Under the pieces are notes generated by a model. That model did not search any database. It saw only the letters and a list, made by a program, of their open reading frames with translations, and was not told the DNA's origin. A stretch of 64,000 nt of DNA from Nemertoderma westbladi (Eukaryota > Animalia > Xenacoelomorpha): NCBI GenBank assembly GCA_032718475.1, contig JAUCBJ010001161.1:1-64000 (forward strand), in the 5' to 3' direction. This document shows, piece by piece, positions 4,272-47,909 of this stretch. The translations under genes were made by a program, and so were the position numbers. Position 1 is the first letter of the stretch, and the number at the start of each line of letters is the position of its first letter.

Positions 4272-5468
4272 TGTACGCGCTTTTGAAGACCTTTAGCAGT
4301 TTAACCTGCCAAAATTTATATGTCTTTTGGTTTATAAATAGACTTTAGAAATTGACAAATATTTAGTACCAATAAACACAACATTAGCAGAAGCCAGCCT
4401 AGTGCGCGTCCATTCACCCGCTGGATATACCCGGGAGACTGGATTCTGAGGGCTTAGATTATTATTGCAGTGTAAGCTTACTGTATTATTCGATTGATCG
4501 TTAATAAATAATTTCTGACCAATATTATTCACTTTCGGGAAATATTAACAGTTCCTTTAGGACGTGGCGCTCTATCTAGGTAAACAGAGATATGACTTAT
4601 ACTAATCACAACAGTAAGTCGGTAAGGCTTATGATTCACGTATGAGGCGCATTCTTTAGGAAATGCTTAGTTATCAGTCACAATCATGCACACTACCAGT
4701 AACACACAATACTGCTCACTAATTTGCCGACCGTCAATGAATTTTATCATATATAAAGAGAATAGCAACTGACTCATGTAGTGCTTATCAAATAGCATTA
4801 AATTCACTACAAACCACAATAATATAAGTCGCAATCGCTATATGTAACCCGTCTCTCTAACCTGTAGTGTATCAAGAAAATTGGGAAATTTGGGTTCTTT
4901 ATAAATGTTCTCCAAATAATATTCAACCAACTGATACAAAATATGACAACAGTAAAAAGCATTAAGACGGTAGGTTAAGATATGATATGACAAGCAGATT
5001 GATATGTTATGTGAGTTGTGTTATGTTAAGATAACAGTTATACGCTCTATAATCTTAAGCCTACTAATGTTTCTTCTAAAGTCTGAAACGAATTGACTCT
5101 AGAGCCGGTGTTCCTGGCCTAGATAGAAACAACACAACAGTATCAAGAAAAACAGTAAGACTGAACCCTCCTAGCATGATCTGCCAAAATCTCCACATCG
5201 ACAGAAAAAATCGCTCTGATTGGCTGTTAAGCTAAACAAAGAACCATGTGTCCAATGGCCGTTTCCATGTCAGCAACCAGCTGTTAGATGTCGTAATCTG
5301 AATCATTAAGGCTAAGCTGTGCCAGGGTATTTGACGCATTGCGGGTTTTTTGCCTTACCATGTCCACCAAAGCACACATATAGAAGAATGACTTTTATGT
5401 CCGTTAAAACACCTATAACGGTACCTTGCGGGCGAGGGGGACTGAGTATATCCGCAAAAGCTTTTACA
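4272..5468 (-). repeat. 3' LTR of element A
   Basis: Direct repeat of 21528-22724 with about 10 substitutions counted by eye. Confidence 0.96.
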
Positions 5469-5476
5469 CCGCTCCC
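5469..5476 (-). other. Short polypurine tract of element A
   Basis: GGGAGCGG on the minus strand immediately before the 3' LTR; identical in element B at 33466-33473. Confidence 0.6.
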
Positions 5477-5546: not shown

Positions 5547-8500
5547 TTAGTCTTTCTTGCGCGGACGGCGTTTACGCAGTTTTTTAAAGCTAGCCAGAGT
5601 CTTTTTCTCTTTGGGGCGAGCCACTTTACAAGGAGGGCTATAACTCCTGGGTGAAGGGTGCAATATGATTGCATCAGAGGGTGTAGGATTATGGTCGGTG
5701 TATCCGCCAGTCGAAGTACCGGGTTGATTGACATCAACGTCGGGGGAGAGGGGTCTAACGGCTTTGAGAGCTCGTTTTAAGACAGCCGCTCTTACGGGTC
5801 CTTTACGAGTGGTCTGAACGAGAGCCGTGGGTGGACCATAGGCAGTCAGAAACCTCCTGGGTTTAATGGTTCTTTCCAACTCGCGTTCGCGGGCTCGGTA
5901 TTCGTAAGGCCGTCGATATACTTCCTGTAACTCGGGGTGTGAGTTAACAAATACGTCTCCATAGTCCGGATCCTGACGGATATAATTGATTAAGTTATAG
6001 GAATGAAGGTCGCTAGGATTAACACTCCTAAGAAATTTGCGTACGAACTTGGTTGAGATACATTCTCCGACGCGCTTCAGTAGCTCGTAACTCGATATGC
6101 GTGATTTCTGTTCGACCGAAGCGAATAGATAAGGATGGAACGCATAAACTCCTTCGTAAGCGCGTCCGGGATAATAGCGATGGCGCGAATCACAATGTAA
6201 ATCAGCGTTCGCTTCCCAAGCTCTGATGTAACGTAGTGTGATCATTTCATCTACGCTTTTCAAATCGCGATTAAAAGGGCAATCGAAACTGGCGTGTCCC
6301 TTTAGTTGACAATGGTGACATTGAGTCATAAATTGAGGGCAAACCGCAAATATGTGCAAGTTATTGAGTCTGCAATATGCGCAATAAATTTCCATAGTCG
6401 GTTGTTCTTGGAAATAGGAACAGCGGACGTTTGTGTCCATGGGCGTATCATGGTCTCTCGATGCGCATAACTGACAACGTTGCCTAGAAACATAGTTGGC
6501 ATGTCGATAATCGTACGCAGTGAGACACTGTGGACCTTGATACCATTCTATGATGTAATCGTTGTCGCTGTTCCGGGGCGCGATAGGCTGAATCTCCTCA
6601 GATTCTAGACATATTGGTTCGTCTTCCAAGTGCATAGCTGAGGTGGGCGTGTCTGTCTCTTCAGGTGGACCTATTGTCTGAATTTCCACGACAGAATAAC
6701 CTGTGGGGATTCGAGGTCTTTGTATAACAGAGGAGTGCAAGTTCGATATACAAATCTCTTTGAAAATGGTGAATCCAGCTCTATCCAACTTCTCTGCAGC
6801 TGAGTTTCTTAGGCTGAGCTTGGTCAAAGCGCGGTCTTTGAATTGGCTATCCACATTGCGGAACGGGGTTAAAAATCGCCGGAAACATTCGAAACAGATG
6901 AATTTATTATGTTCATCTAGCTTAGCGAGTTTGGTCCCAAGTATTAATGGATGGGCGCGTATAGTACGACTGCACACATCGGCTAGCCAACCGGCAAGTG
7001 CGGTGTTTTCAAAGATCGTGTATATAGCTAAGGAGGGACGGAGTGGAACACTCATGAAGCTATACACTGCGCCAGGTGCGGTCAATGGTCCATCAAAGTA
7101 TAATCGAGAATAATGGTCTCCGTATACTTGTTGATAGTTAATTGGATTTCCGACCTTGAAATTCCATCCGTATTCCTGAAAGGCAAGATGTCCGATGGAA
7201 GTTCGTTGCACCTTTGTAATGTTGCTAGATGTATTAGCATACATGGTGCGGAAGAAACCTCGACCTTCTGCCCAGGGAGCAATCAGCTGAGTATCAACGA
7301 AAGGGTATGGAATGTTCTCCATATTCCGAAAGTCGTTTTGGAGATCTCCATAAACAGCTGAGCCGATTTTAAGGATTCTTTCGTTGAACAACATCTCGAG
7401 TACTGGCTGGGGTAACATCGATCCATCGATACCCATGGCCGGTTTGCGTTCGGTGTCAATGACGTAACATTGCGCGAGTTCGAATTGTCCATGTCGGAGA
7501 TTCTTTTGTGTTTCGGTGAGAGTTTCAAAGGAATAATCAATCACGTCGGAACACGCTCGAGTGAACACATGGGTAGAACCAGCTAATCCGCGTATGTGGA
7601 TCATGCGCGTAGTTCCTAGTTCTCCAACCGGAACGCTACCTTCATTATCGTAGGTGACAACTCCATACATCTCAATAACATTAAGAGTTTCATTCCACTC
7701 CTTGGTGGCGTTCTCTAGAGTCATCCCTACTGGATGCCACAAGGTGGCGCATTGGTTAGCGTCAGGCATATCACTATACTTCATGTGCCGAGTGGTATAC
7801 GTCTCCACATTTCCATATCTTTGTATTTTCTCTTCTTCGAATAATACATCTAGATTCCAATGGACTAATCGAGTTTTAATAAATCCATCGAGATTATAAG
7901 GGGGTTCTATATCTTTCTCGATTCTAGAAATGTTATATGGTTTTCTAAATGAGTTTACTTTTACTAACTGATCCAGATGTTTCTGCAATTGTTCGAGTTC
8001 GACAATGTCTAGAGGATTTATTAGTGGTAGAAACTTTAAATTATGCGTTGGGTCCTCTGGTTTTACCATATAATATTGAGTCAGATTAACGTAATAAGGG
8101 TGGTCTTTAATCCCATAAAACGAGTTTTGTAAAGGTCTAGCGCGTATGTTGACATCGTGTACCATACGACGGACAAGATCCGCTCGATTGTCCGGAGGTT
8201 CAACGAGTATACCGTCAACACGAGCGGCTTCTATCGGCGGACGCTGTAACATAGGGGCGTCAGCGATAAGATTTTGCGATCCTGTACTGATATCAACCGG
8301 TTGAGGTTGTATCGTCGCGAAGAGTTTGTCTCCGAAATGTGGAATCATCGAGGGATGATGAATGGTTTGAGAGTAGAGGTCCGTCATAAGGATTTGAGCT
8401 TCAGGTTGGGCTAAAGCGGCTTCTTCTCTCTCTTCCAGTTTCGTGTGTTTCTCCTCGAGTAGATTTTCTTCCGCTTGTCTCTGTAAGCGTTCATCTAAAA

Positions 8501-9800
8501 ATTCTTGTAGAGAATACGTGCGTCCAAGCTCGATGTCTTCCTCGAGGTTTTGGATTTCTCTATCGAATTGTGGCAAGGCTAACTCCTTCACTGATTGGAC
8601 TTGTTGTTGTAATTTACGTTTCTCTAAACAATCTTGTGTTCCCTTTCCGATCTTCTGTCGAATAGCGTCTAAAGCGTTTCTTATAATGCTCTCCTCGACT
8701 TCCGTGGCGGGTTGCATCGGGTTTAATCCTGGACGATTGTAAGGATCAAAGGGCGATATTAGCTGCCCACGTCCCAATCCAGCTAAGTAGGATGGGCGAA
8801 TGTCTAACGAACCCACTACCGGAGCACCACCGATTAATTGTTCGGGTAACACTAAGTCTTTGAACAGGGAATATAGTTCGGGAGGATCAGTGATACTGTT
8901 AGGATCAAGAGTTTGAGGTCTCACTAGGGAATGAGGAGGCCTGACCGAGTATTCCGGAACTCTGATCATGGGTTTATTCAGTGATCGTTTAAGACGAGCG
9001 ATCGTAGGTGGTACGTCGAACAGGTTTCGCTCGAAACTCCCGTAAGTGTAACGCGTAAAGCTGTGTTAAGCGCAACGTCTCCGCGGATGTTTATGTCTTT
9101 CAGTTTGTTGGTTGGGTCTAGGGCATTCGTCATAGTAATACCAAAGACGTACGTCCTGTAGAGGAAACGCGGGTGATCGTTCTCCAGTTTTGCAATATTC
9201 TTCCATTTGTTCAAAACTATCCGGGATAACAGGTAGTGGACGATCGGCGGTAAGATACATCATCGTGAAATAGAGCCGTTTGAGTTCTACCACAGGGTCA
9301 TGATGTATACCTTGAGGATATCGAGTCTCTAGGTTCTGCTGACTGGCGATGTTGAGATAGGTTTCTCTCAAAATTTCTAGGTATTCGTTGAAGTCGATGC
9401 GTTTATCCGGTTCTTCAACGTTTTCTCTTTCCAGTCTATTACGAATAGAATTTTCGTGATCTATTCTCGGTTTATCGTTACGACTCCGCTGGGTATGATA
9501 TTTAAATAGAACCATTTCCCTCTCTGTATCTACATCGTCCGTATCATGTAAATCGATAGGATGGCCGGTAGTTAAGAAGTCCATATACGTACCATTACGA
9601 TTCGTATAGCGAGCGGTGAATTTTCGATAATCCAATTCACGCGCAAGTTGCTCTTGGGACATCGGCGGTTCGATATAACGACCATCGTCCTCCGTAATGG
9701 TTGGATCGGCTTCACCGCGTATTAAGCTATCCACAAATGCTTGCAAAGGTAGAGTATATCGCTCCCTAATACCAAGATCATCTTCTATCAACTCCGTCAT
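5547..9800 (-). CDS. Accessory ORF3 of element A: DEDDy-type 3'-5' exonuclease-like domain plus CCHC zinc knuckles (about 1417 aa, one in-frame TAA at 9066-9068)
   Basis: The 244-aa and 1140-aa ORFs are in the same frame with one stop between them, and B has AAA at that codon. Motifs: VVTYDNEG (ExoI), LPQPVLEMLFNERILKIGSAVYGD (ExoII), FVDTQLIA, SIGHLAFQEYGWNFK, PLRPSLAIYTIFE (ExoIII-like), CAYC..H....C, CHHCQLKGHASFDC, basic C-terminal tail. Confidence 0.75.
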
Positions 9801-11412: not shown

Positions 11413-14400
11413 TCACGTTGGGGAGTCCCTAGATGTTTGAGGAATTAGGGAGGTGGTAGTGGGAAGAGTGTCTTGCCTTCCATAGTTTCCGGAGAGTTCT
11501 CTGTCTCTTTCCAGTAAACATAAACGACCAACTGGGCGATTGAGTTGTTGCGTCTCAAAGATTATGCCTGGCTTCTTGAAGTTACGCCGCATGACGATGA
11601 GTTCTACTGAGCGTACTAAACCATCATCCGAGATGTGGGTCTCGATGATACGACCTGTCTGCCACCGTTTACGTGGGAGGTCTGGATCTACAATAAGCAC
11701 CATATCTCCGGCGCTGACGTTTTCTTGCTGCGCAAACCACTTAGTTCGAAGTTGTAGCGTGGGCAGATAATGTTTCTCGAAATGGTCAGCGAAACGACGG
11801 GATAGCAACTGCATAAGTTGCCAAGTTCGACGGCAGTATTCGTCTCCGTCGGCAATCTCCGATCGTGGGAGCATGGTTACAGGTTTCTTCAGTAGGAAGT
11901 GCGCGGGTGTTAGCGCTTCCAGGGAATCGGGACTCGATGAGACTGGCATAAGCGGTCTCTCGTTGAGATAGGCAGCTATTTCCTCCATTAACGTCCGCAA
12001 AAGTTCGTCGGTGAGATACGCGAGGCATGACACTATAAAGTGAAATGCGGTCTTGACACTTCTAATTAATCTCTCCCAACTTCCTCCCCACCAAGGTGCG
12101 TCGGCGGCGTTGAAGGTCCAGCTAGACGCTGTTATCCTTAGCTGATCGTCCACCTGTCTTTGGTTCCAGTCCTTCACGTAAGCCTGTATTTCGTTATTGG
12201 CACCAATGAAGTTCGTTCCCTTATCCGATCTCATGGTATTACTCGTCCCGAAACGAGCGATCCGTTGGCGTAAACTTAAGACGAAGCTGTTGTTAGATAG
12301 ATCGTTCACCATATCGAGATGGATGGCTCTACAAGTCATGCATACGAAGATGACACACCATCTCTTGACTATAGTCCTAGCACGATATACTTCAATAGGG
12401 CCAAATAAATCTACACCAGTATTAGTAAAAGGTGGTTCATAGAAGCTTACTCGTTCCCTAGGTAATTCTGCCTCTCGCTGTGTTAAAGGCCTACTGAATG
12501 CTTTCCTACAGGGTATGCAGTTCCTAAGAACTTGGTTCAGAGCTCTACGGGGTTTATCAAAATAATAGCGAGTTCGAATTTCGCTAAGAACTCGTTCTCT
12601 ACCAGCATGATAAAGTTTACTGTGAACATCTACAATCATCTTGATTTGTACTTCAAGATTTCTAATGAGTATGGGAAATTTAGTGTCAAAGGATAAGGGC
12701 GCGTTGGTGAGCCTTCCTCCAACACGTATTAACCCATCTATCATTGTGCTAGAGAATCGATCCCTTAAGCGCATCTGCGGATTTCTCAACAACAGGAAAT
12801 ACTTTTCGGAATCCTCATAGCATTGCAGGAGTCTCAGTATCTGCTTATTGGTTTCTTCATGCTCCTGGTGACTAATTTTCTCCTTTAGAAAACGGTCAGA
12901 TGTCTTATATTTTGGTAAATTTTTAATAACATGAACTTGCGCAGATGTCAATGGAGCGATATCACTAATGGTCTTCGTCCTGGAGTAGTGATGATGAAAA
13001 CATCTCCTTAAATACGTGATGGCTTTACAGAGCCGATTCCAGGAACTGTAGTGATGCATTGTTTGCTGCAGCAGGGGTGAGATTCCTTGCGAGATGTCAG
13101 GTATTTCAGATTTCCAGTCTCTATCTCTAATTTCCACAACAGACTTATTTGTGTTGAGGGATTGTGGATCCGAAGCATCATTCCCGGAAGTATGTAATAC
13201 AGATAGATCGATAGTCGGTTTAAATAACTTCGATTTACTCGCCCGGGTTTTAGGTTTGACTGTCTCCGCTCCCTTGGCTTGTCTAATATCCGCCGTAGTA
13301 AGGTGAGGAGGCCATTCATCCTCTTCCTTGCTCAGGAAGTCGGGTCCACCCAACCAGTCTGGAGTATCTATCAGTTCCTGTGGAGTTGCTCCCCGAGAGG
13401 CGATATCGGCTGGATTAATCGTACCAGGGCAATGTCTCCATTGATCTATCTTTGTGCGACTAAGAATAATAGCTACCCTGTTAGTAACAAAAACGCTGAA
13501 CTGGCAGACTTCATTGGTTAGATACTCCAACACGAGTAAAGCGTCGGTCCAATAAACCGTTTTCTCCAGTGGATAGTCGATTTGTTCCGTTATGTTCCGG
13601 CCGATGGCTGTAGCGTATAAAGCCGCCTTTAACTCCGCTCGAGGAACCTTTAACTTGTTGTTAATCAATGCCTTAGAGGTAACCAAGGCGACTTTGATTC
13701 CATCCGGAGTTTCGACTCGCAGATATGCTACTATACCTATTCCCATGTCGCTGGCGTCTCCAAACACATGGAGTTGATAGGAATACGTAGGAAGAACATG
13801 ACCAAAATATGCACGGGAAATTATAAAGTTCTCGATGGCAGGTAGAGAATCTTCCCATTTCATCCATTTCTTTAACAGTTCTCCCTTAAGCGGATCGTCC
13901 CATGAGTGGTTTTCAAGCCACATTTGTTGTACTAAACTCCGAGCAATCAATATAACTGGGCTAATAAATCCCAATGGGTCGAAATAAGTGCTCAGGATAC
14001 TTAAACAAATCCGTTTGGTCCGAACTGGATTATCTCGCTGTTTTAGCTGAAAAAACAGGATGTCTCTTTCAGTGTCCCACTTCAAGCCAAGCGTCTTGGT
14101 TTCTGGAAGATCGTCCTTTATTAAGTCTAGGTCTTTCGTTCCTCGGTCTTCTACCGGTATCGCTTCCAGAAACTCACGGGAGTTGCTAGTGAATTTCGTC
14201 AGTCGAAATCCACCTCTTTTCAAACACTCTACCGTTCCTTTCGCGACATCAATGGCTTCTTCTACTGATGGAAGGGACCTTAAATTATCGTCCATGTATA
14301 TATTACGCTTGATGTTGTCTATCACCTCTTTTGAGAAGGAGTCTCGGTTGTCATTCGCAGTGGTTCGCACCACGGAGCAGGCGTTGGAAGGACTAGATAT

Positions 14401-17400
14401 GATCCCAAAAGCCTGGATGGTCATCCAGTACTCTATCGGTTTCTGATTGAGGTCTCCTTCAGGCCACCACAGAAATCTCAGGCTGTCTCTATCTCTATCC
14501 AGCGCCTTGACTTGTAAGAACATTCCTTCTATATCGGAGGCGAACGCGATGGAATATTGTCTTAATCTTAAAAGTATTCCCAACAAAGATTGGAGTAAGT
14601 TGGGTCCTGGTAACAACTCGGAATTGAGGGATTGGCCCATATATAGCGCGGAGCCATCGAATACGACTCGTACTTCATGGGGTTTACCGGGTTTGGGAAC
14701 GTAATGATGTGTTAAGTAATACGTTCTCTCCGTCACTGGTGTTCCTTCCGGTACTCGCTCCGCGTATCCCTTTGTTATAAATTTCTTCAGCTGAGTTTGG
14801 TACATTTCTTTAGCTGAAGCATTAGCCGTAAGGCGTCGATGCAATTGAGCGATTCTTTTCTCTGCCAAGGGTCTGTTATTTATAAATCTAGGTTCTCGTT
14901 TTCGAAATGGTAGGCCGATTTCATATCTACCTTGGTCCTTTAAAAAACGTGTAGTTGTTTCCTGGATTTGCTTGGCTCTTTCTTCTTCTATCGATAGAGC
15001 CTTATCGTATGAATTGGGCTCTACCAGTTCTTGAGTAAAGAATCGTACGGCTAGTTCGTCCCGAGTTCTAGCGTTGTAGCGCTCTATCTCATCGTTTAGT
15101 TCGTCATTGTAAGCAATGGGTTCCGATGGGCGAATCAGTTGACATAGGTTCACCTGATTTTTCCAAGTTTGGTTTTCTGTAAGTAGGTTGATTGTGTTCT
15201 CTTCTTCAAAGAGTTGGTAGATGTCGTCATTATCTGAGGAGTATGGTGTTCCCTCAGTTAGTTCGTCCACCTCACTGCTCTCCACTTCCCAATCGTTTAC
15301 TTGGTATATTTGTTCTTGTGGCATTCTCTTTTCGAGAGTCCTGCGGGAAGGGCCAGTAAAGTACCAACCTACTCTAGTTCTTACCGCATAGGTTTGCAGT
15401 GGCTGCGGTTGAGCAGGCCGTTTCTCCAATGTCTCGAGCGCCTCATGCGCGTTTTGGCCGATGAGTATTTGCACTCCAGGATAATCTGTCTGGAATCGAG
15501 GTATCTTAAGATGTTGGATGCTCTCATCCTCGTCCCAATTATAAAGGTCTGCTTGAGTAGTAGCGAAGTTCTTTATAGCCACCATTTTTACCGACCTTAT
15601 ACCTTGTGCTCCTAATTTATCCTGGGGGGTGGACAACACACCTACATAGTAATCTGCCGTTAGGGTAGATTTCCAAACCTGCATAATTCCTGACATATTC
15701 AATTTAGTCCGGAATTTAGGTTGTCCAGCAAAGATATCTTCGGCTAGTTCTTGATCGATGAATGTTCCTGTGCTGCCGGAGTCAAGGAGTACGTTCACTA
15801 TGTAACTTTTGTTAGGACCGTGAACTCTTACCTGCACTACAGGAAATTCTATGATTCCTACGTTGGAAGTTGGAGCTTTCCAAGATGGTTGTCTGGCAAA
15901 AGTAGTTGGGGGAAACTCATTGTTGGTGTCCTTTTCATAAGTAAGTTCTCGATACACCGCGGTATTGATTAGATAACAGGATTCGTTGGCGTCGGAGAAT
16001 TCGTCAGTATAGAATCCTTCCATCTCAGATTCTTGATCAGTGTCATTTACATCACTGAATTGGACAATATGTAGTTCGGGCTCACTTACCTGACTCGGGT
16101 TGTCTCGTTCGAACTCACTGTGTAACAAGATGTGATGTTTCGCGCTACACTTTGCACACTTTACGTCGGAGTAACAGGTTCGCCGTTGGTGTCCTGGTCT
16201 GAGGCAATTATAGCATAACCGCTTATCCCACACGACTGCACGTCTGTGTACAAGAGATTTCTTTAGAAATTCAGCACACGCACTCAAACGGTGGGTCCCG
16301 TCGCACAGCGCACAGTTAGGTTTTATGTTACTCACTTTACCTTGGGTAACCTGATGCACTCTCATTCTTTCTTCGGGCTTTCTTCCGTGCATTCTGTTAG
16401 GAGACTGAGGAGGGGTCTTGGCAACCTGTTCTCTCCTATCGTTGGTTCGAGCCTTATATTTACTTACGTCTTTTGGGGTTTTGTTAACGTAGTAAAATTT
16501 GTCAGTGTCTTTCCCGCTGTCCTCTTCTTGAGAAGCTTGGCTTTCGCCGTCGTCAGTGTAACACACCGGTGTGACTCTTCTCCTAGAAACGGGTTTCTCA
16601 CTTACCTTATTTTCCGATGTTTTTTCTCTGGACTGCTTGATGAGTTGTAGTTTCACTTCACCATCTAAGAAGGACATGAGATCAGTCATGGTAGGGCTTC
16701 GTCGTTGCTGTTCATTCATGTACAACACTTTCTTGTCCCAACGGGTACATACTCCACCCTTTGGTAAAGTAGAGACTACTGCTCCAATAACCATGGAACT
16801 CTGATATTCATGAGACTTACCTAACCAGTCCAATTGTCTACAGATCTCCTGAATCTCATCGGAAAACTCTATAATCACGCTACTAAGGAAGTTTCGGGGG
16901 GCTACTAATTTTGCATACAAATACTTAGCTATGTTATCCTTGTTACCATACCTGATGTTTAATGTATCCCAAACTTGTCTTAATCCTTCTGGATGTCCAA
17001 TAAACTTTAACGCCATTAACTTGGGAGGTCCTTCCAAGCACTTGATGAGGAACCTAAGTTTCTCGCCGTTAGATAGCACAGAGTTCTGTATGCTGTCTTT
17101 GTAATATTCGTTGAAAGGTAACCATTTCATCTCATCTCCATTGAATTTGACGATCTCTCCCACTTTGACCGCTTGGCGGGCTTCTGTTCTAGCCATCTGA
17201 TGCGTAAAGCTTTCTTGGGCCATCGTGTTATTTAATATCGAATTATCGGTATATAAATTTCTCGGATCATTATCAGGTCTATAGGGAATATCATTAACAA
17301 CAGGTCTATAATCACCCTTAATAGGGTTTGCTATAGGAGTTTCTACTTCACTAGCAGTATAGATGCGTGTAGGCTCCACACCTTGCGCATGTAATACTTC

Positions 17401-18189
17401 AGACCTAACAGGTTGACACAATTTTACAGGGGGTATTGGTATACCATTTTGTATATTGACTAATTTGTCGCGTTCTAGCGCGATACTTTGCTGCACTTCT
17501 TGCAATTCTGCCCTACCTTCCCTTACGGTTCCCTTAAGTTGGTGGACAGTCTCCTGCATCTGTCCGAGCAGGAGATTCATCCCCCGCCGTCCCTCCTCTA
17601 CCCACTCGACCGCCGAAGCGGGAGTCGCCAACATTGTAGCGGGCTGACGCGGGACGACAGGAGACAAATCTTTGATTTCTCTCTCAGCTTCCAGGACAGG
17701 GATATTCTCATGGACTGTTCTACCGGGTACAGGCAGTGTAGTACTGTGTAAAGGGAATTTAGAGTTAAGCTCTGGAAGTACTGGGGTCTCTAGCACAGGA
17801 GTGACTTTGGGAACGACAGGCCTAATTATTTCAGGCTCATCAACTATGGTAGGGAGTTTTTTGACCTTAATAATTTGGTCTGTAGGTTCTATACTACTTA
17901 AGTCTGTGCTAGCTAGTTGCCTTCTAACAGCTGGGGGCAAATCAGGCAATTTGTGACGGTAAGATGTTTTTCTACGCCTGCTTAGACGAGATCTATTTCC
18001 TCCGCCTTCAGGATCGGTGGTTTCGCTTTCCTCCGATGATGTATATCCCTGGCGTTTGGGAGTAGATCTTCTCATCATCTGCATGTGACTAGCAGTTAAC
18101 TGTTTATTTATGTTGTCTTGCGTCTCTTGCAGATTTTCCAACTCTAGTTGGGTAGTCTCCTCAGACGCTCTCAGTTCTGCTTCTGCCAC
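11413..18189 (-). CDS. Gag-Pol polyprotein of BEL/Pao element A (gag, three Zn knuckles, protease, RT, RNase H, integrase)
   Basis: 2258 aa uninterrupted; KFNGDEMKW gag motif, CALC/CYNC/CAKC knuckles, LLDSGS, YMDD, LHVFGDAS, HHCC, VDLFG/SDKGTNF/GSWER; true start uncertain (see +1 frameshift finding). Confidence 0.96.
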   Translation of the reverse strand: MAEAELRASEETTQLELENLQETQDNINKQLTASHMQMMRRSTPKRQGYTSSEESETTDPEGGGNRSRLSRRRKTSYRHKLPDLPPAVRRQLASTDLSSIEPTDQIIKVKKLPTIVDEPEIIRPVVPKVTPVLETPVLPELNSKFPLHSTTLPVPGRTVHENIPVLEAEREIKDLSPVVPRQPATMLATPASAVEWVEEGRRGMNLLLGQMQETVHQLKGTVREGRAELQEVQQSIALERDKLVNIQNGIPIPPVKLCQPVRSEVLHAQGVEPTRIYTASEVETPIANPIKGDYRPVVNDIPYRPDNDPRNLYTDNSILNNTMAQESFTHQMARTEARQAVKVGEIVKFNGDEMKWLPFNEYYKDSIQNSVLSNGEKLRFLIKCLEGPPKLMALKFIGHPEGLRQVWDTLNIRYGNKDNIAKYLYAKLVAPRNFLSSVIIEFSDEIQEICRQLDWLGKSHEYQSSMVIGAVVSTLPKGGVCTRWDKKVLYMNEQQRRSPTMTDLMSFLDGEVKLQLIKQSREKTSENKVSEKPVSRRRVTPVCYTDDGESQASQEEDSGKDTDKFYYVNKTPKDVSKYKARTNDRREQVAKTPPQSPNRMHGRKPEERMRVHQVTQGKVSNIKPNCALCDGTHRLSACAEFLKKSLVHRRAVVWDKRLCYNCLRPGHQRRTCYSDVKCAKCSAKHHILLHSEFERDNPSQVSEPELHIVQFSDVNDTDQESEMEGFYTDEFSDANESCYLINTAVYRELTYEKDTNNEFPPTTFARQPSWKAPTSNVGIIEFPVVQVRVHGPNKSYIVNVLLDSGSTGTFIDQELAEDIFAGQPKFRTKLNMSGIMQVWKSTLTADYYVGVLSTPQDKLGAQGIRSVKMVAIKNFATTQADLYNWDEDESIQHLKIPRFQTDYPGVQILIGQNAHEALETLEKRPAQPQPLQTYAVRTRVGWYFTGPSRRTLEKRMPQEQIYQVNDWEVESSEVDELTEGTPYSSDNDDIYQLFEEENTINLLTENQTWKNQVNLCQLIRPSEPIAYNDELNDEIERYNARTRDELAVRFFTQELVEPNSYDKALSIEEERAKQIQETTTRFLKDQGRYEIGLPFRKREPRFINNRPLAEKRIAQLHRRLTANASAKEMYQTQLKKFITKGYAERVPEGTPVTERTYYLTHHYVPKPGKPHEVRVVFDGSALYMGQSLNSELLPGPNLLQSLLGILLRLRQYSIAFASDIEGMFLQVKALDRDRDSLRFLWWPEGDLNQKPIEYWMTIQAFGIISSPSNACSVVRTTANDNRDSFSKEVIDNIKRNIYMDDNLRSLPSVEEAIDVAKGTVECLKRGGFRLTKFTSNSREFLEAIPVEDRGTKDLDLIKDDLPETKTLGLKWDTERDILFFQLKQRDNPVRTKRICLSILSTYFDPLGFISPVILIARSLVQQMWLENHSWDDPLKGELLKKWMKWEDSLPAIENFIISRAYFGHVLPTYSYQLHVFGDASDMGIGIVAYLRVETPDGIKVALVTSKALINNKLKVPRAELKAALYATAIGRNITEQIDYPLEKTVYWTDALLVLEYLTNEVCQFSVFVTNRVAIILSRTKIDQWRHCPGTINPADIASRGATPQELIDTPDWLGGPDFLSKEEDEWPPHLTTADIRQAKGAETVKPKTRASKSKLFKPTIDLSVLHTSGNDASDPQSLNTNKSVVEIRDRDWKSEIPDISQGISPLLQQTMHHYSSWNRLCKAITYLRRCFHHHYSRTKTISDIAPLTSAQVHVIKNLPKYKTSDRFLKEKISHQEHEETNKQILRLLQCYEDSEKYFLLLRNPQMRLRDRFSSTMIDGLIRVGGRLTNAPLSFDTKFPILIRNLEVQIKMIVDVHSKLYHAGRERVLSEIRTRYYFDKPRRALNQVLRNCIPCRKAFSRPLTQREAELPRERVSFYEPPFTNTGVDLFGPIEVYRARTIVKRWCVIFVCMTCRAIHLDMVNDLSNNSFVLSLRQRIARFGTSNTMRSDKGTNFIGANNEIQAYVKDWNQRQVDDQLRITASSWTFNAADAPWWGGSWERLIRSVKTAFHFIVSCLAYLTDELLRTLMEEIAAYLNERPLMPVSSSPDSLEALTPAHFLLKKPVTMLPRSEIADGDEYCRRTWQLMQLLSRRFADHFEKHYLPTLQLRTKWFAQQENVSAGDMVLIVDPDLPRKRWQTGRIIETHISDDGLVRSVELIVMRRNFKKPGIIFETQQLNRPVGRLCLLERDRELSGNYGRQDTLPTTTSLIPQTSRDSPT

Positions 18190-19468
18190 CGCTGCCTTTT
18201 CTTTCTGCTTCTGCTGCTGCTGCTGCCTTTGCTGCTTCTGCTGCTGCCTTTGCTGCTTCTGCTTCTGCCGCCGTTACTGCTGCTGCCTTTCGGTCCTCTA
18301 TCCGTTTTTTCTTTACTTGTTCTTCTTGGACTCTAGCGAGGCGGAGTTTTTCATCAAATTTAGCTTGGTTTGCAGCTAACATTTCCGCATCGATTGCGTC
18401 CAACACAAGCTTGGTTCCTTCACTATTAGGGCGAAGTCCAGACAGTCGTCTCCTCAACTCTTCGTCTCCTAGGAATCGTTGATAGTCTGACAGATAGATG
18501 TCTATGGCGTCTCTCGAGGGCGGCTTCTCTGCTGGTGTCTCTTCGCTTTCCATTTGAGAAAGGGTGGCATCGGTTGGTTCTTCATAGGTTGGTCTCTCAG
18601 TCAGCTGGGATTTCCACTGAACCGTTTCTTGAACTTTGAGACCTACCCGCTGGAACCAAGTCTTGACAGCAACTTGCAGCGACGTGTCCTGTCTTCTTTT
18701 GGAAGTTTCCTCAAAGGCTGATAGGATTAGTCTAATGCGTAGGGTTCTTTCACGTACTTGATATAGCAGCTCTTCCTGCTCTTGAGGTCCTTGGGGTTGT
18801 CGAAACAGTTGTTCTTCTAATCGCTCTAAGGAGCCGAAGAATCCCTGCACATATCCTGCTGCCGACCTCTTCCAAACAGCTGGATCCATCGTATCTTTAG
18901 CCACTCCCATCCTGTGTATCTCTTCCCAAGTAGCTTCGGACAAATCTAACGGGAGTCCGGGTCCGGGAAAGTTCCATTGTGACTCGACAATAGACATCAA
19001 TTCTTCCCTGGCGTATCCCGCATAACTATCTTGGGTCGCTCGCTTACTTCTCGCCCAATCGGCTTGATGTTCCTCCACCGCCATCAATATAGTAGTTAGT
19101 ACTGCGGCAGGAAGGGTGAGAAGGGGATCCGAGTAGGCTGTAGCCGCCATCTGCACTCCGCGTTCGGGGGTCAGCTCTACAGTATCCGAACTACTGGAGC
19201 TATCTGATCGCTGGGAACAAGTTTCTTGACTAGGATGTTGCTGCGGTTGGACAGCTGCTTCCTGGTTCCGTTTGACTTGGGCCCGAGTGCCGATGATAGA
19301 CCTACGGTGTTGGATTAGCTTAGGGTCTGATACTACTACTGGAGGGATGACCTTTCTTTCAGTAGGAGGTGAGCTGAACTCCTTTCTTAATCGCTCCACA
19401 CTCCTATCTGTGTCACAGATGGTTGTATCGATCAGACTGTCTGACAGGTTTTGCTGGGTGTCAGACAT
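18161..19468 (-). CDS. Upstream ORF1 of element A (helical/coiled-coil; probable N-terminal part of Gag)
   Basis: 435 aa starting with ATG; homologous ORF in B (50901-51734); overlaps Gag-Pol, which is in the +1 frame. Confidence 0.8.
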   Translation of the reverse strand: MSDTQQNLSDSLIDTTICDTDRSVERLRKEFSSPPTERKVIPPVVVSDPKLIQHRRSIIGTRAQVKRNQEAAVQPQQHPSQETCSQRSDSSSSSDTVELTPERGVQMAATAYSDPLLTLPAAVLTTILMAVEEHQADWARSKRATQDSYAGYAREELMSIVESQWNFPGPGLPLDLSEATWEEIHRMGVAKDTMDPAVWKRSAAGYVQGFFGSLERLEEQLFRQPQGPQEQEELLYQVRERTLRIRLILSAFEETSKRRQDTSLQVAVKTWFQRVGLKVQETVQWKSQLTERPTYEEPTDATLSQMESEETPAEKPPSRDAIDIYLSDYQRFLGDEELRRRLSGLRPNSEGTKLVLDAIDAEMLAANQAKFDEKLRLARVQEEQVKKKRIEDRKAAAVTAAEAEAAKAAAEAAKAAAAAEAERKGSGGRSRTESV

Positions 19469-21516: not shown

Positions 21517-21527
21517 ATAACTGTTAT
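21517..21527 (-). promoter_or_regulatory. Non-tRNA primer-binding-position 11-mer of element A, complementary to LTR site 22287-22297
   Basis: Minus strand ATAACAGTTAT directly after the 5' LTR with no TGG; exact complement inside the LTR. Confidence 0.7.
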
Positions 21528-22724
21528 TGTACGCGCTTTTGAAGACCTTTAGCAGTTTAACCTGCCAAAATTTATATGTCTTTTGGTTTATAAATAGACT
21601 TTAGAAATTGACAAATATTTAGTACCAATAAACACAACATTAGCAGAAGCCAGCCTAGTGCGCGTCCATTCACCCGCTGGATATACCCGGGAGACTGGAT
21701 TCTGAGGGCTTAGATTATTATTGCAGTGTAAGCTTACTGTATTATTCGATTGATCGTTAATAAATAATTTCTGACCAATATTATTCACTTTCGGGAAATA
21801 TTAACAGTTCCTTTAGGACGTGGCGCTCTATCTAGGTAAACAGAGATATGACTTATACTAATCACAACGGTAAGTCGGTAAGGCTTATGATTCACGTATG
21901 AGGCGCATTCTTTAGGAAATGCTTAGTTATCAGTCACAATCATGCACACTACCGGTAACACACAATACTGCTCACTAATTTGCCGACCATCAATGAATTT
22001 TATCATATATAAAGAGAATAGCAACTGACTCATGTAGTGCTTATCAAATAGCATTAAATTCACTACAAACCACAATAATATAAGTCGCAATCGCTATATG
22101 TAACCCATCTCTCTAACCTGTAGTGTATCAAGAAAATTGGGAAATTTGGGTTCTTTATAAATGTTCTCCAAATAATATTCAACCAACTGATACAAAATAT
22201 GACAATAGTAAAAAGCATTAAGACAGTAGGTTAAGATATGATATGACAAGCAGATTGATATGTTATGTGAGTTGTGTTATGTTAAGATAACAGTTATACG
22301 CTCTATAATCTTAAGCCTACTAATGTTTCTTCTAAAGTCTGAAACGAATTGACTCTAGAGCCGGTGTTCCTGGCCTAGATAGAAACAACACAACAGTATC
22401 AAGAAAAACAGTAAGACTGAACCCTACTAGCATGATCTGCCAAAATGTCCACATCGACAGAAAAAATCGCTCTGATTGGCTGTTAAGCTAAACAAAGAAC
22501 CATGTGTCCAATGGCCGTTTCCATGTCAGCTACCAGCTGTTAGATGTCGTAATCTGAATCATCAAGGCTAAGCTGTGCCAGGGTATTTGACGCATTGCGG
22601 GTTTTTTGCCTTACCATGTCCACCAAAGCACACATATAGAAGAATGACTTTTATGTCCGTTAAAACACCTATAACGGTACCTTGCGGGCGAGGGGGACTG
22701 AGTATATCCGCAAAAGCTTTTACA
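21528..22724 (-). repeat. 5' LTR of element A
   Basis: 1197 bp, TG...CA; CCAATCAG box on the minus strand near 22473-22480. Confidence 0.96.
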
Positions 22725-24857: not shown

Positions 24858-25460
24858 TCTTGTTCGCGCTTTTAGACCTTTGGCAGTTTAACCCGCCAAA
24901 TTAGGATGTCTTCTAGATAATAAATCGATTTTAGCCTCTGACAAGTATTTGATTCACTACACTAGTCGAAACCAATCTGTGCGCGATCATTCACCCGCTG
25001 GATATACCCGGGAGATTGGGTTCGACGGCTTAATCATATTGCTATGTAAGCCTACTGTATTATTCGACTGATCGTGTTATATAATCTCTGACAATATTAT
25101 TCACCTTCGGGGAATATTAGCAGTTCCTTTAGGACGTGGCGCTCTATCTATATAAACAGAGTTATGACTTAAACTACTCACAACGATATGGCTTAGTTAT
25201 AATTCACATATATGGCGCATTCTTTAGGAAATGCTTCGTTATCAGTCTCACTCATACACAATGCTGCACAATACTGCACACTAATCTGCCGATCTTCACT
25301 GATTTTAGTCACATATAAAAGGAACACAGACCGACTCATGTAGGGTCTATCAAATAACATTAGATTCACTTCAAACCACTTTAACATAAGTCGCAATCGT
25401 TATATGTAACCTGTCTCTCTTACCTTCGGTATATCAAGAATATTGGGGTTTCGGGGTTAT

Positions 25461-25930
25461 TGTGATAGAAACCCTCTATCATTGGTCTATATAGGACCTA
25501 ACTGTTAATAATGTTTGTGTTCATTTATAATTCAAATTAAGTATATTCACATTCAGTAATCATAATCAGTGTTTTGTCAGTGTTATAAAGTATTTAGTGT
25601 ACTGCTGTACTGCCTACAGCAATTACTGCTGTAGGCCTATATATTCGTACCTAACATGTCTGTATGTGGTATGTGTTGTTAGCCTATTATATAATATGGG
25701 AGTAGGTGAATGGGTACATCTACCTATAAAGATTAAAGGATTAATATAACTTTATGTTTATGTAAATATTCATTATTATCATTTGTCAGAAGTCTGAACC
25801 TTGATATAGGAACTTATATGGATATATCATACAGTCATAATGCTGTCCTGCTGTCAGCTGTAATGTCATATCAGCAATCAGCATATCTTATACAGTTATA
25901 ATCATACTTCTGCACTCAATATCCATGACA
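25461..25930 (+). repeat. 5' LTR of element C
   Basis: TGTGATAG...CATGACA, repeated at 32371-32840. Confidence 0.97.
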
Positions 25931-25946
25931 TGGCGCCCGATAAGGG
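25931..25946 (+). promoter_or_regulatory. Canonical tRNA primer-binding site of C (Lys-like)
   Basis: TGGCGCCCGAtAAGGG directly after the LTR; resembles the tRNA-Lys PBS TGGCGCCCGAACAGGG. Confidence 0.8.
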
Positions 25947-26602
25947 GAAGGCTACCGGTACGGACAAGTAAAGACAAAGTAAAGAGTAAAGACTTGGACT
26001 GATGGTGAGTTTCTATGTTCTATTCCAGTATTTAGAAACGTCGGCTGAAACAAGAACAAGTTTGTACCGGTGTGTTATTCTACATTCCAGTATTGCTGCA
26101 ATTTCATTGACTTCTGAACTTTGATTAGGCAGTTAGGCCTAAGTGCTAAGGCTGTAAGGGTAAGGTATCCCTGCAATTTCGGCTTTTATTGAAAGTACAG
26201 CTGTCTGGATGTACCGTACATCAGGCCAGGCTCCCATGATTGAGAGGCCAGTCTGACACTGACAGTGCGGTGTGTAATCAATATTAATTATTCACTAATT
26301 TATATGAGAGTATAGCTTATACTGGGACACGCCCAGGCTACCAGGCCTATTGCAGTTAGACTGGTGACTGGTAACTATTGTCTGATTGTTTCAGCATTAT
26401 ACTAGCAATTTACATTCATCAAATTTATCAATCACAAATCAATGCTGAAAAATGAGAATGGTTGCAAATTTAATTAATGAGACACAGCAGAACTGATCAT
26501 AGGACCGGTTCATTACTAAATTTAAAACATACCTATACACTATGCTATACCTACCATACAGCCATAGGCAGCTAGCTAGCTAGGAAAGGAAGACACAGAA
26601 TA

Positions 26603-29600
26603 ATGGCTACACAAATAAATGAATTGGTGAAACTAAAACGCAAACGCAGTGGGCTGAGATCCACTGTAACAACAATTAGAAACAAATTTAACCCTGATGA
26701 CACAATAGAGACAAATCGAATTACTTTAGACAGACTCGGACTCCTTTTACCGCGCCTAGACGCCATAAATGAGGACATTTGGGGACATCTTGACCCAGAA
26801 ACCCAAGAATTTGAGAATGATGTTGCAGTAGCTGGGGATTATGAGACTGCTATTCGCTCATTAATAAAACAGATAGAGCCAATAATAGTACCAGCAAGTG
26901 TGAGTGTAAATCTTAATGACAGCAATGCAGCTGCTATGGCAGACCTATCATCAGTGGTACAAACTCAACAATCATATTTTGACTCTCGTCTTTTGGCACA
27001 ACAAGTTTTGCCAAAATTGGCGCCACCTACTTTTGATGGAAATTTGTTAAATTATGAAGGGTGGAAAAATGCTTTTACAGCTGCTGTGGAAGATTCCAAA
27101 CTTCCTAACATAATCAAATTCCAGTATTTATTGGAAAGCTTGAAAGGACCGGCCAAAGCAGTAGTGGCAGGTCTACCAATTAATGAAGGAAATTATTATG
27201 TAGCAATGCAGCTATTAACTACCCGCTATGGAGATAAGGAGGCAATAATTTCTGCACATATCGAAGAGATAAGGAAAATTGGTCGATCTACAACAAAACT
27301 TAGGGATATAAGTGATAAATGTTTGACACATGTAAGAGCATTAGAGGCTTTGGGAATTTCGCCGGTCGAATATCAACGTGTAGTCATTCCTGATATAACA
27401 GCTGGGGTTAGTGATACTATAATGTTGAAATTGCTGGCAGAAAAACGTTCAATTACTGATTTAGATTGGCTAATAACAAAATTGCAAAAATTTGCATTGG
27501 CTGAGGAATCTCTCAGCTTAATAAGACAAGATTCACAAAGAAGTAAATGGTCATCAAGCAAAGAAAAACAAGCGGTACCAACGTATTCAAAACCAATAAA
27601 TCAGCCAGCTATTGCTTCTCTTGTGGCTCCATCACACTCGAAATCTGGGAAAACTATTTACAATTCATCCTATAAACAGAATAAAGCAACAAATAGTACC
27701 CCAAATTCATCACAACCTCAACCTAGATTACAAAACTCATCATCATCAAGCCAACCATTTGTAATAACATGTGTTTATTGTAACCAGAATCATTATTCAG
27801 ACAATTGCCGAATAGTTCAAGATAATATACTCCGACGAAATTCATTAGAAGAAAAGGGGCTGTGTAAAATTTGCATTAGGGGAAATCACAAAACATGGGA
27901 ATGTAGAGCGACATGTAGATGTTACTATTGTAAAGCTACTTCTCACCATTCAAGTATTTGTCCTAATAAAGTATATACTGGAACAAATGCATCTAAATCA
28001 CCAATAGTAACTTCAACAAACACTCAACCTAATGTAAATTCAGATTTAGTTACCAAATCAAAGTCTTCAACATCTGTTGTCGCCATAAGCCATAAATGTG
28101 TGGATCAAAGTTGCGCCAACTCTGAAGATGTATTATTACAAACCGCAATTTTGGATTGCGAAGGTAATGATCTTCCTTACAACTTAAATGCTTTATTTGA
28201 TGGTGGAAGTCAGAAAACGTATATTATCAGATCAGTTGTGAATCAGTACAGATTACAGGTCATAGGCAGTGAAGAGGTTAACATAAGTGGGTTTGGAAAT
28301 ACATCAATGCCATTGACATGTGAAATAGTGCAGGTTAATGTAAAACTTCGTTCACAAGGTATTGAAACTCTCCAAGCTTGTGTAGTTGATTCAATTTGTA
28401 AACCAATATACAATGGATTTGTATTAAATGACAAATTAACCAATTTAATGGAAGAGTTGGACTTAGCTGACCCATCATTGCGTTCACCTGGTAACTTATT
28501 TCCAATTGAACTTCTAATAGGAGGAGACCAGTATTGGTCAATAGTTTCAGGGTCTATTTTGCGTAAATCAGCTACTCTACCAGTGGCACTCCATTCATCA
28601 GTTGGTTGGTTGCTATCTGGTCCTGTTCCTCATACAGTTAGTGAGGCACAAGAACTTACTATTATTCCAACCTCAATGACAATGTGCACGTCCACAGTAA
28701 ATGTCAATAACACAAATAATCACAATTTAAACAAAAATTTATATCAATTAATTGAGTCATTTTGGTCAATGGAATCAATTGGAATAACAGACGGGGTAAA
28801 TGATGAGGAAACAGTGGATTTAGGAATTACTAAGTCAAACAGCATATATTATGTCAAGTTACCATGGAAAATGCCAAAGAATGTACTTGTTGATAATTTC
28901 AATCATAGTTACAACATTTTATTGTCATTGATAAAGAGATTAAATAAATCTGGTTTATTGTCAAAATATAATGATGTTATGATGGAACACTTAAAACATG
29001 GCTACATAGAACATGTCAGCATTGACTCTCCAGTTGAAAATGGTAGAATAAAACATTACATTCCTCACCATGGAGTTATCCGAGAAACAGCAACCACAAC
29101 TAAACTAAGAGTTGTATTCAATGCTTCATTTAAACCGTTGCGTCACACACTGTCATTAAACGATTGTTTACACAGAGGTCCAAATTTGTTGCCTAATTTG
29201 GTAACTACTTTAATTCGCTGGAGGCTATATCGCATTGGTATCATAGCCGATTTAAAACAAGCGTTTATGCAGTGTGGAGTAGTTGAAGAAGACAGAGATG
29301 TACTGCGATTTCTGTGGGTGGATGATATTGATAAAGTGAAAACAGGTCAACAGCAAATCATAGCATATCGATACACAAGAGCAATGTTTGGAGTGACAAG
29401 TTCACCTTACATTTTGAGAAAAGTTTGTACAGAGCATCTAGAAGAAGAAAGAAATATATGTAAGGTAGAAGAAGTTGAAAGGTTAGATACTATAAATAAA
29501 TTAAAAGATCTTTATATGGATGATCTTGCAACTGGAGTAAATACTGAACAGGAAGGTATAAACTTATATAAAATAGCAAAAGAAATAATGAAAAAGGCAA

Positions 29601-32293: not shown

Positions 32294-32360
32294 ATCAAAC
32301 TCTAATCAAATTTAGCCAAAGATTAAATGACTTTAATCAATTATTGAGACTGCAAGTCTC

Positions 32361-32370
32361 AAAGGGGGAA
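32361..32370 (+). other. Polypurine tract of C
   Basis: AAAGGGGGAA immediately before the 3' LTR. Confidence 0.85.
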
Positions 32371-32840
32371 TGTGATAGAAACCCTCTATCATTGGTCTAT
32401 ATAGGACCTAACTGTTAATAATGTTTGTGTTCATTTATAATTCAAATTAAGTATATTCACATTCAGTAATCATAATCAGTGTTTTGTCAGTGTTATAAAG
32501 TATTTAGTGTACTGCTGTACTGCCTACAGCAATTACTGCTGTAGGCCTATATATTCGTACCTAACATGTCTGTATGTGGTATGTGTTGTTAGCCTATTAT
32601 ATAATATGGGAGTAGGTGAATGGGTACATCTACCTATAAAGATTAAAGGATTAATATAACTTTATGTTTATGTAAATATTCATTATTATCATTTGTCAGA
32701 AGTCTGAACCTTGATATAGGAACTTATATGGATATATCATACAGTCATAATGCTGTCCTGCTGTCAGCTGTAATGTCATATCAGCAATCAGCATATCTTA
32801 TACAGTTATAATCATACTTCTGCACTCAATATCCATGACA
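32371..32840 (+). repeat. 3' LTR of element C
   Basis: Copy of 25461-25930. Confidence 0.97.
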
Positions 32841-33543
32841 GTTATTTCTCGTTATTCCAATATAATATTTCATCACCATATAATGAATAATCGACAGTAA
32901 ATAGCAGTATAACAATATAAAAGTATGTACAACAAGATATATGCATTGCCCAGTTGAGTTAGGTTAGTAGGTAAGTATTGAGTTGCACAGATAACGGATA
33001 TATGTCCTTATAATTAAGCCTACTAGTGTTAGGCTAAAAGCAGAACAGCACAAAATATTCCAAAGCCGTTCTTCCTGGCTCAGGACAGAATGATAACACT
33101 GCCCATAATGCATTGCGTGATTTCTCGGAAATTTCTGTACAAGAGCCATAAAAACGCTCTGATTGGTTGACTGAACTAAGAGAAGCCGTAGAACAAAGAA
33201 AATCGACACGTATGAATATCAGCTGTTAACCGTCGTCATAGTAACTACTGTTCAAGAGTATCTAGCCCCTTTTGCGTCATAGAATTGCCATAGAATCACC
33301 AACCATGTCTTCCAAAGTACACATACGGAAGAAATAGCTCTTAGGTCCTCTAAAAAACACCGATACAGCAATAATACGGCCTCTTACGCCTACTAAACCA
33401 ACTACAGAGTATTTTACGGGAAAAATAAGGAAAAATAACCGGGCAATTCCGCAAAAGCTTTTACACCGCTCCCAGAAAATGGGATTTTCAGTCTATAAAA
33501 TATAAAAATCACAGTTTCTAAAACATAAAGATACTCTAAACAG

Positions 33544-36719: not shown

Positions 36720-37407
36720 TTACGTTATGGAGTCCCTAGATGTTTGAAGGATTAGGGAGGTGGTCGTGGGAAGAGAATCTTGCCTTCCACAGTTTCCGGA
36801 GAGTCCTCCATTCCCTTCCGGTAAACACAAACGACCGACTGGGTGATTGAGTCGCTGCATCCCGAATACAATTCCAGGTTTCCTCTTCGTCCTGGAATAG
36901 TGACGATAGAAACATCGCTCAAAGTATATGACGGCGTTACAAAGCCGATTCCAGGAGCTATAGTGGTCCGTCGCTCCCTGCAGGAGAGGTAAGAGTCCCT
37001 GCGAGACGTCTGATGTTCCAGAGCTCCAATCGCTCCCTCTGATCTTCATGAAGGATCCACTCGCGGTGGGGAGGTCCAGATCCACGGCGTCGTCCCTGGC
37101 AATATGTAATACCGACAGATCTATCCCGGGTTCAAATAACTCCGATCCACCCGTCCGGGTTTTAGGTTTGACTTTCTCCGCTCCCTTGGCTTGTCTAATC
37201 TCAGCCGGAGTAAGATGGGGAGGCCATTCATCCTCCTTACTCAGGAAGTCGGGTTCACCTAGCCGGTCTGGAGTATCTGTCAGTTCTTGAGGAGTTGCTC
37301 CTCTGGAAGCGATGTCGGCTATATTCATCGTCTTGGGGCAATATCTCCATTGATCTACATTGGAGTTAAGATTGTCATTATCTGAGGAGTGTGGTGTTCC
37401 CTCAGTT
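36720..37407 (-). pseudogene. Deleted pol remnant of B (PR-RT linker joined to end of RNase H, joined to integrase C-terminal tail)
   Basis: SSDND|VDQWRYCP...ADIASRG...HYSRTK|RKPGIVF...PVGRLCL: two large deletions relative to A, both in frame. Confidence 0.88.
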
Positions 37408-37412
37408 GGGTC

Positions 37413-37946: not shown

Positions 37947-38075
37947 GTGACAGAACTAGATCCGCCCAGCTGCCCTGACAGAGATAGAATCATAGCAGCT
38001 GCCCTAACAGTCTGACAGTGATAGAACTAGATCTAACCAACTGACAGACTGTGGCTGCCAGCTACCAAAGGCGAG

Positions 38076-43697: not shown

Positions 43698-43703
43698 GAA
43701 GCG

Positions 43704-45890: not shown

Positions 45891-46119
45891 AGTTTAGTCG
45901 TCCAATATTTGGACTGAGGGGGGTGGGAATGAGGGCGAGACGCCCTTCCCACAAGAAATTAATTATTTAATTAAAAATAAAAATAAATAATAATAAATAA
46001 TTAAATAATTAAAATAATAGTTAGTAGAAGTAAGAGGTAGTTCGAAGATAGGAGAGTAGAGTTAGAAGGCGGCGGGGCAAGGGAGTGTGGCATATTGTCA
46101 TGCCACGAGTAGTAGTAGT

Positions 46120-47904: not shown

Positions 47905-47909
47905 GGGTC

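Follow-up and report, generated by a model that had tools for sequence, protein, structure and literature searches.

What does a long terminal repeat (LTR) retrotransposon do with a third gene that sits in the place of an envelope (env) gene and resembles a nuclease, and is that gene linked to the way the element primes its reverse transcription? The question is raised by element A, a BEL/Pao insertion in a 64,000-nt stretch of the Nemertoderma westbladi genome (contig JAUCBJ010001161.1, positions 1 to 64,000; hereafter, the window). Its third open reading frame (ORF), ORF3, occupies 9800-5547 on the minus strand, in sense with the element, between pol, which ends at 11413, and the 3' LTR (5468-4272), just as the first-pass annotation of the sequence had it. 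We observe this architecture, a homology to the RNase D family at motif II, purifying selection on the protein, and an 11-bp complement between the element's primer-binding site (PBS) and its LTR with compensatory changes in a sister family. Our tentative reading, held at a little under an even chance, is that ORF3 would be an active RNA-trimming accessory nuclease, most likely acting against host small RNAs or tailed RNA ends, and that priming is a separate matter.

Element A is a BEL/Pao LTR retrotransposon, with gag, protease, reverse transcriptase (RT), RNase H and integrase in that order, TG..CA LTR ends and a short target duplication. A Pfam scan of ORF2 found DUF1759 (PF03564), the Pao RNase H family Peptidase_A17 (PF05380, E=5e-36), the integrase zinc domain (PF17921) and DUF5641 (PF18701) in order. 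The RT motif YMDD lies at aa 1326, and acidic motifs are present in both RNase H and integrase. The insertion is young, since the two LTRs differ at only 10 sites (99.2% identity) and a GAAAT 5-bp target duplication flanks the element on either side. Described BEL/Pao elements (Belpaoviridae) share with element A the gag DUF1759, the Pao RNase H, the integrase order, the TG..CA LTRs and the 5-bp duplication; their described third ORFs, in contrast, are env-like glycoproteins (PMC3118150, PMC13524379, PMC4580426), and their usual length is 4.2-10 kb, about half the 18.5 kb of element A (PMC3118150). An env reading of ORF3 was rejected. Its best 19-residue Kyte-Doolittle mean is 1.2, below transmembrane strength, so that it has no env-like anchor, and the Pfam scan gave no glycoprotein family match. 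The earlier remark that ORF3 lacks a transmembrane helix therefore stands, while its companion remark on a signal peptide falls outside the hydropathy check, no dedicated signal-peptide predictor having been run. ORF1 and ORF2 overlap at 18161-18273 in different frames, within an Ala/Lys/Glu-rich repeat. The extra ORF1 precedes the ORF that holds the recognisable gag, and elements A and D (see below) alike carry long N-terminal extensions ahead of DUF1759.

ORF3 is under purifying selection, although it is broken in the element A copy. It measures 1,417 aa only if an in-frame stop at 9066-9068 is read through; the size of 1.4 kaa first given to it holds across this break, which had been missed. 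The stop appears private to this copy: the sister family's element B carries a sense codon at that place, and in run X1 the two contigs spanning it both differ from the window. Run X1 supplied 12 contigs, 80-99% alike, that cover the ORF3 domain (their type is uncertain and they are uninformative on expression). Of the 40 variants listed for the domain (of 104 rows), synonymous changes make up 34, where 33% would be expected from transitions (p=1e-11), and the ratio of nonsynonymous to synonymous polymorphism (pN/pS) is ~0.05. Conservation of the acidic residues across copies, on which the first-pass annotation had let its exonuclease claim depend, agrees with the same 40 of 104 rows, none of which changes a candidate catalytic residue. 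In the N-terminal part, elements A and B differ at 77, 43 and 141 sites at codon positions 1, 2 and 3, respectively, with ~455 of each compared. The synonymous excess in the domain and the third-position excess between A and B argue that ORF3 has been kept as a protein over its whole length.

No Pfam exonuclease family matches ORF3, whether the whole protein or the domain alone is searched, so more sensitive tests were needed for an assignment. The exonuclease motifs initially quoted all lie where they had been placed: TYDNEG at 7655-7638, LPQPVLEML at 7415-7389, ILKIGSAVYGD at 7376-7344, FVDTQLIA at 7301-7278, SIGHLA at 7199-7182, GWNFK at 7169-7155 and PLRPSLAIYTIFE at 7046-7008. The NCBIfam RNase D model TIGR01388 matches ORF3 at E=0.0026, a score short of the curated cut-offs. 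In the ESM Atlas, 24 of 30 matches to the domain carry PF01612, the best scoring 0.94 with 178/256 features shared. Among 1.84 billion representatives a single homologue of ORF3 was found, P0001 (648 aa; E=3e-7), which comes from one 9.4-kb ENA contig. At E<=0.1, a profile built from ORF3 and P0001 found matches in 51 of the 201 bacterial genomes searched; nine of these 51 were also scanned for PF01612, and there eight matches fall within a PF01612 domain. HH-align against 47 bacterial PF01612 domains gave a probability of 95% (E=2.5e-8, 65 columns), compared with 0.04% for the reversed control; likewise, a hidden Markov model (HMM) of the RNase D family scored ORF3 at 15.0 bits, where the best of 500 shuffles reached 0.6. 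Motif II (D574, K..H/G...D) and DTQ are the sole confidently aligned parts, with ~65 columns reliable. Structure databases were less informative: the best Protein Data Bank (PDB) match of the profile is EXD2, at E=1.6 only, and a single-sequence PDB search with ORF3 returned chance-level matches. From this sequence evidence the ORF3 domain likely belongs to the RNase D/WRN/EXD-type exonuclease family, and the first-pass proposal of such a domain, followed by knuckles, in the env position gains support from TIGR01388, HH-align and the Atlas.

P0001 also shows which features of ORF3 belong to its family. At 27-31% identity it retains DxE, the D of motif II, DTQ and YxxxE, followed by a spacer and three knuckles; the tyrosine and all four acidic residues thus appear to be conserved between the two proteins. 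Motif III is YxxxE rather than YxxxD in both proteins, as had been noticed in ORF3, in columns of low confidence. Because P0001 has both, the D-to-E change and the exonuclease-knuckle layout are family traits and not damage in element A; the predicted domain would thus be at most a DEDE variant of a DEDDy enzyme. The three Cys/His knuckles reported in ORF3 are there, but only the third (Cx2Cx4Hx4C) is a canonical CCHC, the first being Cx2Cx4Hx10C and the second Cx2Cx5Hx4C; the basic tail that was said to follow them is also present. An HRDC domain was not found, either by Pfam or by a profile made from the part that follows the exonuclease domain in 38 bacterial RNase D proteins (probability 0.15%). 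The best Atlas cluster of P0001 is a euglenozoan PF01612+zf-CCHC family (0.86), which serves as a lead only. Protein searches limited by a length window and shared words gave, with P0001 as query, only P0001 itself among 7,996 proteins, no match to ORF3 aa 420-960 among 2,859 candidates and no match to the ORF3+P0001 profile among 3,707 proteins. No relatives appeared in the scanned metagenome or viral contig collections, tblastn against phages and plasmids gave nothing significant, and PHROGs matches were weak.

There is precedent for such a third gene, as the first-pass annotation noted. Bdelloid rotifer LTR elements (Juno1/2, Vesta2/5) carry DEDDy exonuclease ORF3s with a DEED motif (PMC5408684; restated in PMC5718144, PMC6431247 and PMC6338049). 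Such ORFs are also known from Athena/Terminon elements, and they are found in LTR clades that are unrelated as well as in Penelope-like elements (PMC5408684). The Juno/Vesta ORF3s share with that of element A a separate post-pol ORF in the env place, an RNase D-like DEDDy domain, an altered acidic motif and no transmembrane segment. They differ in their DEED motif, where element A has D-E-D-E, and in the kind of element that carries them, which here is BEL/Pao; moreover, neither a length of ~1,400 aa nor three C-terminal knuckles is described for them, and the PBS goes unmentioned there (PMC5408684). The closest domain layout is that of Trypanosoma brucei RND (TbRND), which belongs to the RNase D group. 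Its exonuclease trims the 3' ends of guide RNAs, whose tails are held by its CCHC fingers, and the authors call this pairing of domains very unusual (PMC7797062). Like ORF3, TbRND has an RNase D-group exonuclease, a linker, several C-terminal CCHC fingers and no HRDC; unlike ORF3, it is a cellular mitochondrial enzyme of <400 aa with four fingers and a canonical DEDD (PMC7797062). PDB searches gave no sequence match between the two, so the likeness may be convergent. The literature searched gave no support for an exonuclease in nematode Cer elements.

The second trait of element A is its PBS. The first-pass annotation had pointed to a missing tRNA PBS and a self-complementary site. The second is confirmed, the PBS being an exact complement of an LTR 11-mer ~760 nt away, and the first agrees with a PBS that does not start with TGG. 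In element B, the PBS at 53985-53995 is likewise an exact complement of its LTR nt 465-475 (54741-54751), 11/11 in both families and at aligned positions. The B and A sites differ at two positions of the PBS, both compensated at the aligned LTR site, and crossed A/B pairs match over 6-7 nt only. Complements of 11 nt arose by chance in 75 of 20,000 simulated LTRs for family A and 43 of 20,000 for family B. Whole-leader folding of element A pairs the 11-mer with the PBS at a probability of ~0.98. No tRNA genes were found in the 64-kb window and no Rfam match around the leader. A splice-built primer was rejected: in none of A, B and D does a GT-AG junction give a longer match than the contiguous sequence.

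This arrangement resembles that of Tf1, in which the RNA's first 11 bases anneal to the PBS and RNase H cleavage falls between bases 11 and 12 (PMC7175516), and of Tj1, a self-priming element of the Tf1/sushi group (PMC4600332). Tf1, Tf2 and Tj1 share with element A the absence of a tRNA site, an 11-nt PBS abutting the 5' LTR with its LTR complement, a nearby U5 stem-loop and RNase H motifs (PMC7175516, PMC4600332). Element A lies outside the Tf1/sushi lineage: Tf1 has a Ty3/Gypsy pol, element A a BEL/Pao one. In addition, the Tf1 11-mer is shown to be the transcript 5' end and is cut by RNase H (PMC7175516), whereas that of element A is a candidate read from the sequence, and the available text of PMC7175516 and PMC4600332 mentions no exonuclease ORF for Tf1. 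There is a strong case that element A carries a Tf1-like self-priming signature, and it likely starts reverse transcription from a piece of its own RNA rather than a host tRNA. Covariation at the primer site points to self-priming beyond Ty3/Gypsy. Within BEL/Pao, the PBS of Achilles is tRNA-Tyr (PMC3118150, PMC13524379, PMC4580426), and a search made mostly outside subscription papers and without supplements found no published report of an exonuclease ORF or self-priming in this group (literature with neither trait, as far as its available text goes, includes PMC3601003, PMC5443660, PMC5445492, PMC3118150, PMC13524379, PMC4580426, PMC11662393 and PMC3985635).

Some further features of the A and B non-coding sequence were seen. 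The element A leader (19469-21527) is ~2 kb of non-coding sequence with a 38-nt tandem repeat at 21186-21489. The pol-ORF3 spacer (9801-11412), 1.6 kb and non-coding, is 87.5% identical between A and B, above the ORF3 coding part (80%). The 5' parts of the LTRs have diverged between A and B, yet short blocks upstream of the primer 11-mer are kept (A LTR nt ~240-255 and 350-415, with B equivalents): a CCAAT-containing block, CCAGGAA and TAGTAGGCTTAA, which are possible promoter elements. AATAAA was not found in the element A LTR.

How might these two traits work? ORF3 sits 1.6 kb past the pol stop and would for that reason be made from its own message. Its knuckles might grip a single-stranded 3' tail, by analogy with the four CCHC fingers of TbRND, and feed it to a two-metal site formed by D473, E475, D574 and E686. 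The substrates would be host small RNAs or U-tailed RNA ends, and the enzyme would trim or destroy the short RNAs of the host silencing system. Transcription of element A would begin at the LTR 11-mer, and an 11-nt piece of this RNA, cut by the element's own RNase H, would then likely prime reverse transcription independently of ORF3.

Several results weigh against this picture of an active nuclease separate from priming. Motifs I and III were placed by pattern. TYDNE was aligned to SIDVE of P0001 in only 48 of 560 boundary choices; with P0001 as the HH-align master, SIDVE falls on the family DTE, whereas with the window protein as master TYDNE does not. Two other alignments, which place SIDVE of P0001 elsewhere, were set aside. 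The last acidic residue of ORF3 is E instead of D. The HH-align and HMM tests are partly circular, since 20 of the 50 template loci were picked with the ORF3+P0001 profile itself. AlphaFold models of the domain are of low confidence (predicted local distance difference test 30.3 and 29.5). The selection figures come from 40 of 104 variant rows, 12 contigs and one run. On the priming side, whole-leader folding of element B pairs the 11-mer with the PBS at a probability of 0.03, and element C, whose 470-bp LTRs are identical and which is the only BEL/Pao element of the window with a tRNA-like PBS of the TGG type, has no ORF3 either; lacking both traits, it fits a link between them.

The D-to-E change in motif III also lends itself to a different account, in which the exonuclease fold has little or no activity and serves to bind RNA, as in EXD1, Maelstrom or Egalitarian. 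ORF3 would then be an adaptor for the element RNA, carrying, shielding or localising it, or a decoy for factors of the PIWI-interacting RNA (piRNA) pathway. In the Atlas, a cluster of Exd1 homologues comes third for ORF3 (0.94) and second for P0001 (0.77), no family matches the N-terminal ~700 residues, part of which is a charged helical stretch, and inactive DEDD derivatives function in piRNA biology (PMC5408684). The apparent retention of the four acidic positions and the tyrosine in so distant a homologue, however, is more expected of an active site, and we consider the adaptor rather unlikely.

Because both traits occur on element A, it is well suited to the question of a link between exonuclease and self-priming. 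If they were, a tRNA-independent BEL/Pao lineage would have captured a dedicated DEDE exonuclease with knuckles for finishing its own 11-nt primer: after a cut downstream of the LTR 11-mer, the 3' overhang would be removed as far as the 11-bp duplex, at which an exonuclease acting on single strands would stall. Trimming of this kind was the idea of the first-pass annotation. In both A and B the duplex measures exactly 11 bp, the tRNA-type element C has neither trait, and RNase D-type enzymes do finish structured RNA 3' ends (PMC5408684, PMC7797062). Co-occurrence of the traits, which the first-pass annotation had raised, can be read from four window elements (A, B, C and D). Element A has both and element C neither, but element D has a self-complementary site with no match to P0001 or ORF3 and no detected exonuclease-like ORF, although it is defective. 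Its 9-nt PBS (37947-37955) is an exact complement of LTR nt 344-352 (37756-37764), with a chance of 18/20,000, and its gag is only ~22% identical to that of element A, which makes it a second, distant candidate for self-priming. Element B, also a recent insertion, lacked the exonuclease and knuckles of ORF3 when it inserted (the remainder has 10 stops); having also lost its RT, it was helped in trans and so decides nothing on this link. The stronger claim, that the exonuclease is required to make the primer, is not borne out, as RNase H suffices for the 11-nt primer of Tf1 (PMC7175516), the RNase H motifs of element A are present and element D lacks a detected exonuclease. Since Tf1 does without an exonuclease and DEDDy ORFs are spread over retroelement classes that are unrelated (PMC5408684), we judge primer finishing by ORF3 improbable, and the odds are against the proposed causal link. 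If true, such a capture would make an env-slot accessory enzyme a third route of LTR priming, beside tRNA and RNase H-only self-priming.

That ORF3 is a captured host or viral gene decaying as a passenger, as the in-frame stop in A, the deletion and stops in B and the deletion joints across ORF3 in X1 might suggest, is very improbable, because the stop is absent from both covering X1 contigs and from element B, no close cellular relative exists among the representatives searched and the strong synonymous excess largely refutes it.

We thus continue to favour, tentatively, an active RNA-trimming nuclease that stands apart from priming. Retrotransposon exonuclease third genes have been in print for rotifers with their function open since 2017; element A extends them to BEL/Pao and adds evidence of purifying selection. 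As the domain layout has a solved functional analogue in TbRND, the question is testable with a protein of 300-500 residues.

Table 1. Features of element A and the other LTR elements of the window
Feature	Coordinates	Strand	Description
Element A	22724-4272	(-)	LTR retrotransposon, 18,453 bp
5' LTR of element A	21528..22724	(-)	1,197 bp, TG..CA ends
LTR 11-mer	22287..22297	(-)	Candidate self-primer; LTR nt 428-438; exact complement of PBS
U5 stem-loop	21547..21570	(-)	Predicted; just upstream of LTR end; family B keeps pairing with pairing-neutral changes
PBS of element A	21517..21527	(-)	11 nt, abuts 5' LTR; no TGG start, not tRNA-like
ORF1	18161..19468	(-)	435 aa counted from first ATG; no significant Pfam family
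ORF2	11413..18273	(-)	2,286 codons, zero internal stops; gag (DUF1759, knuckles), protease, RT (YMDD), RNase H (PF05380), integrase
ORF3, N-terminal part	9066..9800	(-)	244 aa, ATG 9800, ends at in-frame stop 9066-9068; no family match
ORF3, remainder	5547..9065	(-)	1,172 codons: charged helical stretch, exonuclease-like domain, three knuckles, basic tail
Exonuclease domain of ORF3	6990..7700	(-)	Predicted RNase D/EXD-type (PF01612-like), 3'-5'; candidates D473, E475, D574, Y682, E686 (numbering of the 1,172-aa stretch)
Cys/His knuckles	6279..6476	(-)	Three: one canonical CCHC, two variant spacings
Basic C-terminal tail of ORF3	5550..5669	(-)	15 K/R in final 40 aa
Purine tract	5469..5476	(-)	Short; abuts 3' LTR of element A; read from sequence
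3' LTR of element A	4272..5468	(-)	1,197 bp
Element B	24861..55215	(-)	Sister family of A; defective; interrupted by two other LTR elements
Element C	25461-32840	(+)	BEL/Pao; intact-looking, single ORF of 1,905 aa; inside 3' LTR of element B
Element D	37413-47904	(+)	BEL/Pao; defective: DUF1759 gag and protease, no RT found; identical 534-bp LTRs

The window holds further repeats. A third LTR of family A (63719-64000, minus strand, 95% identity) is cut by the window end; a PBS does not follow it, and it is either a solo or a 3' LTR. On the same strand, a Mutator-like transposase ORF lies at 23124-24482 (PF20700, E=1.5e-41) and a non-LTR retrotransposon-like fragment with a weak RVT_1 match at 58222-59430; another such fragment, judged by eye, lies on the plus strand at 2149-3915.

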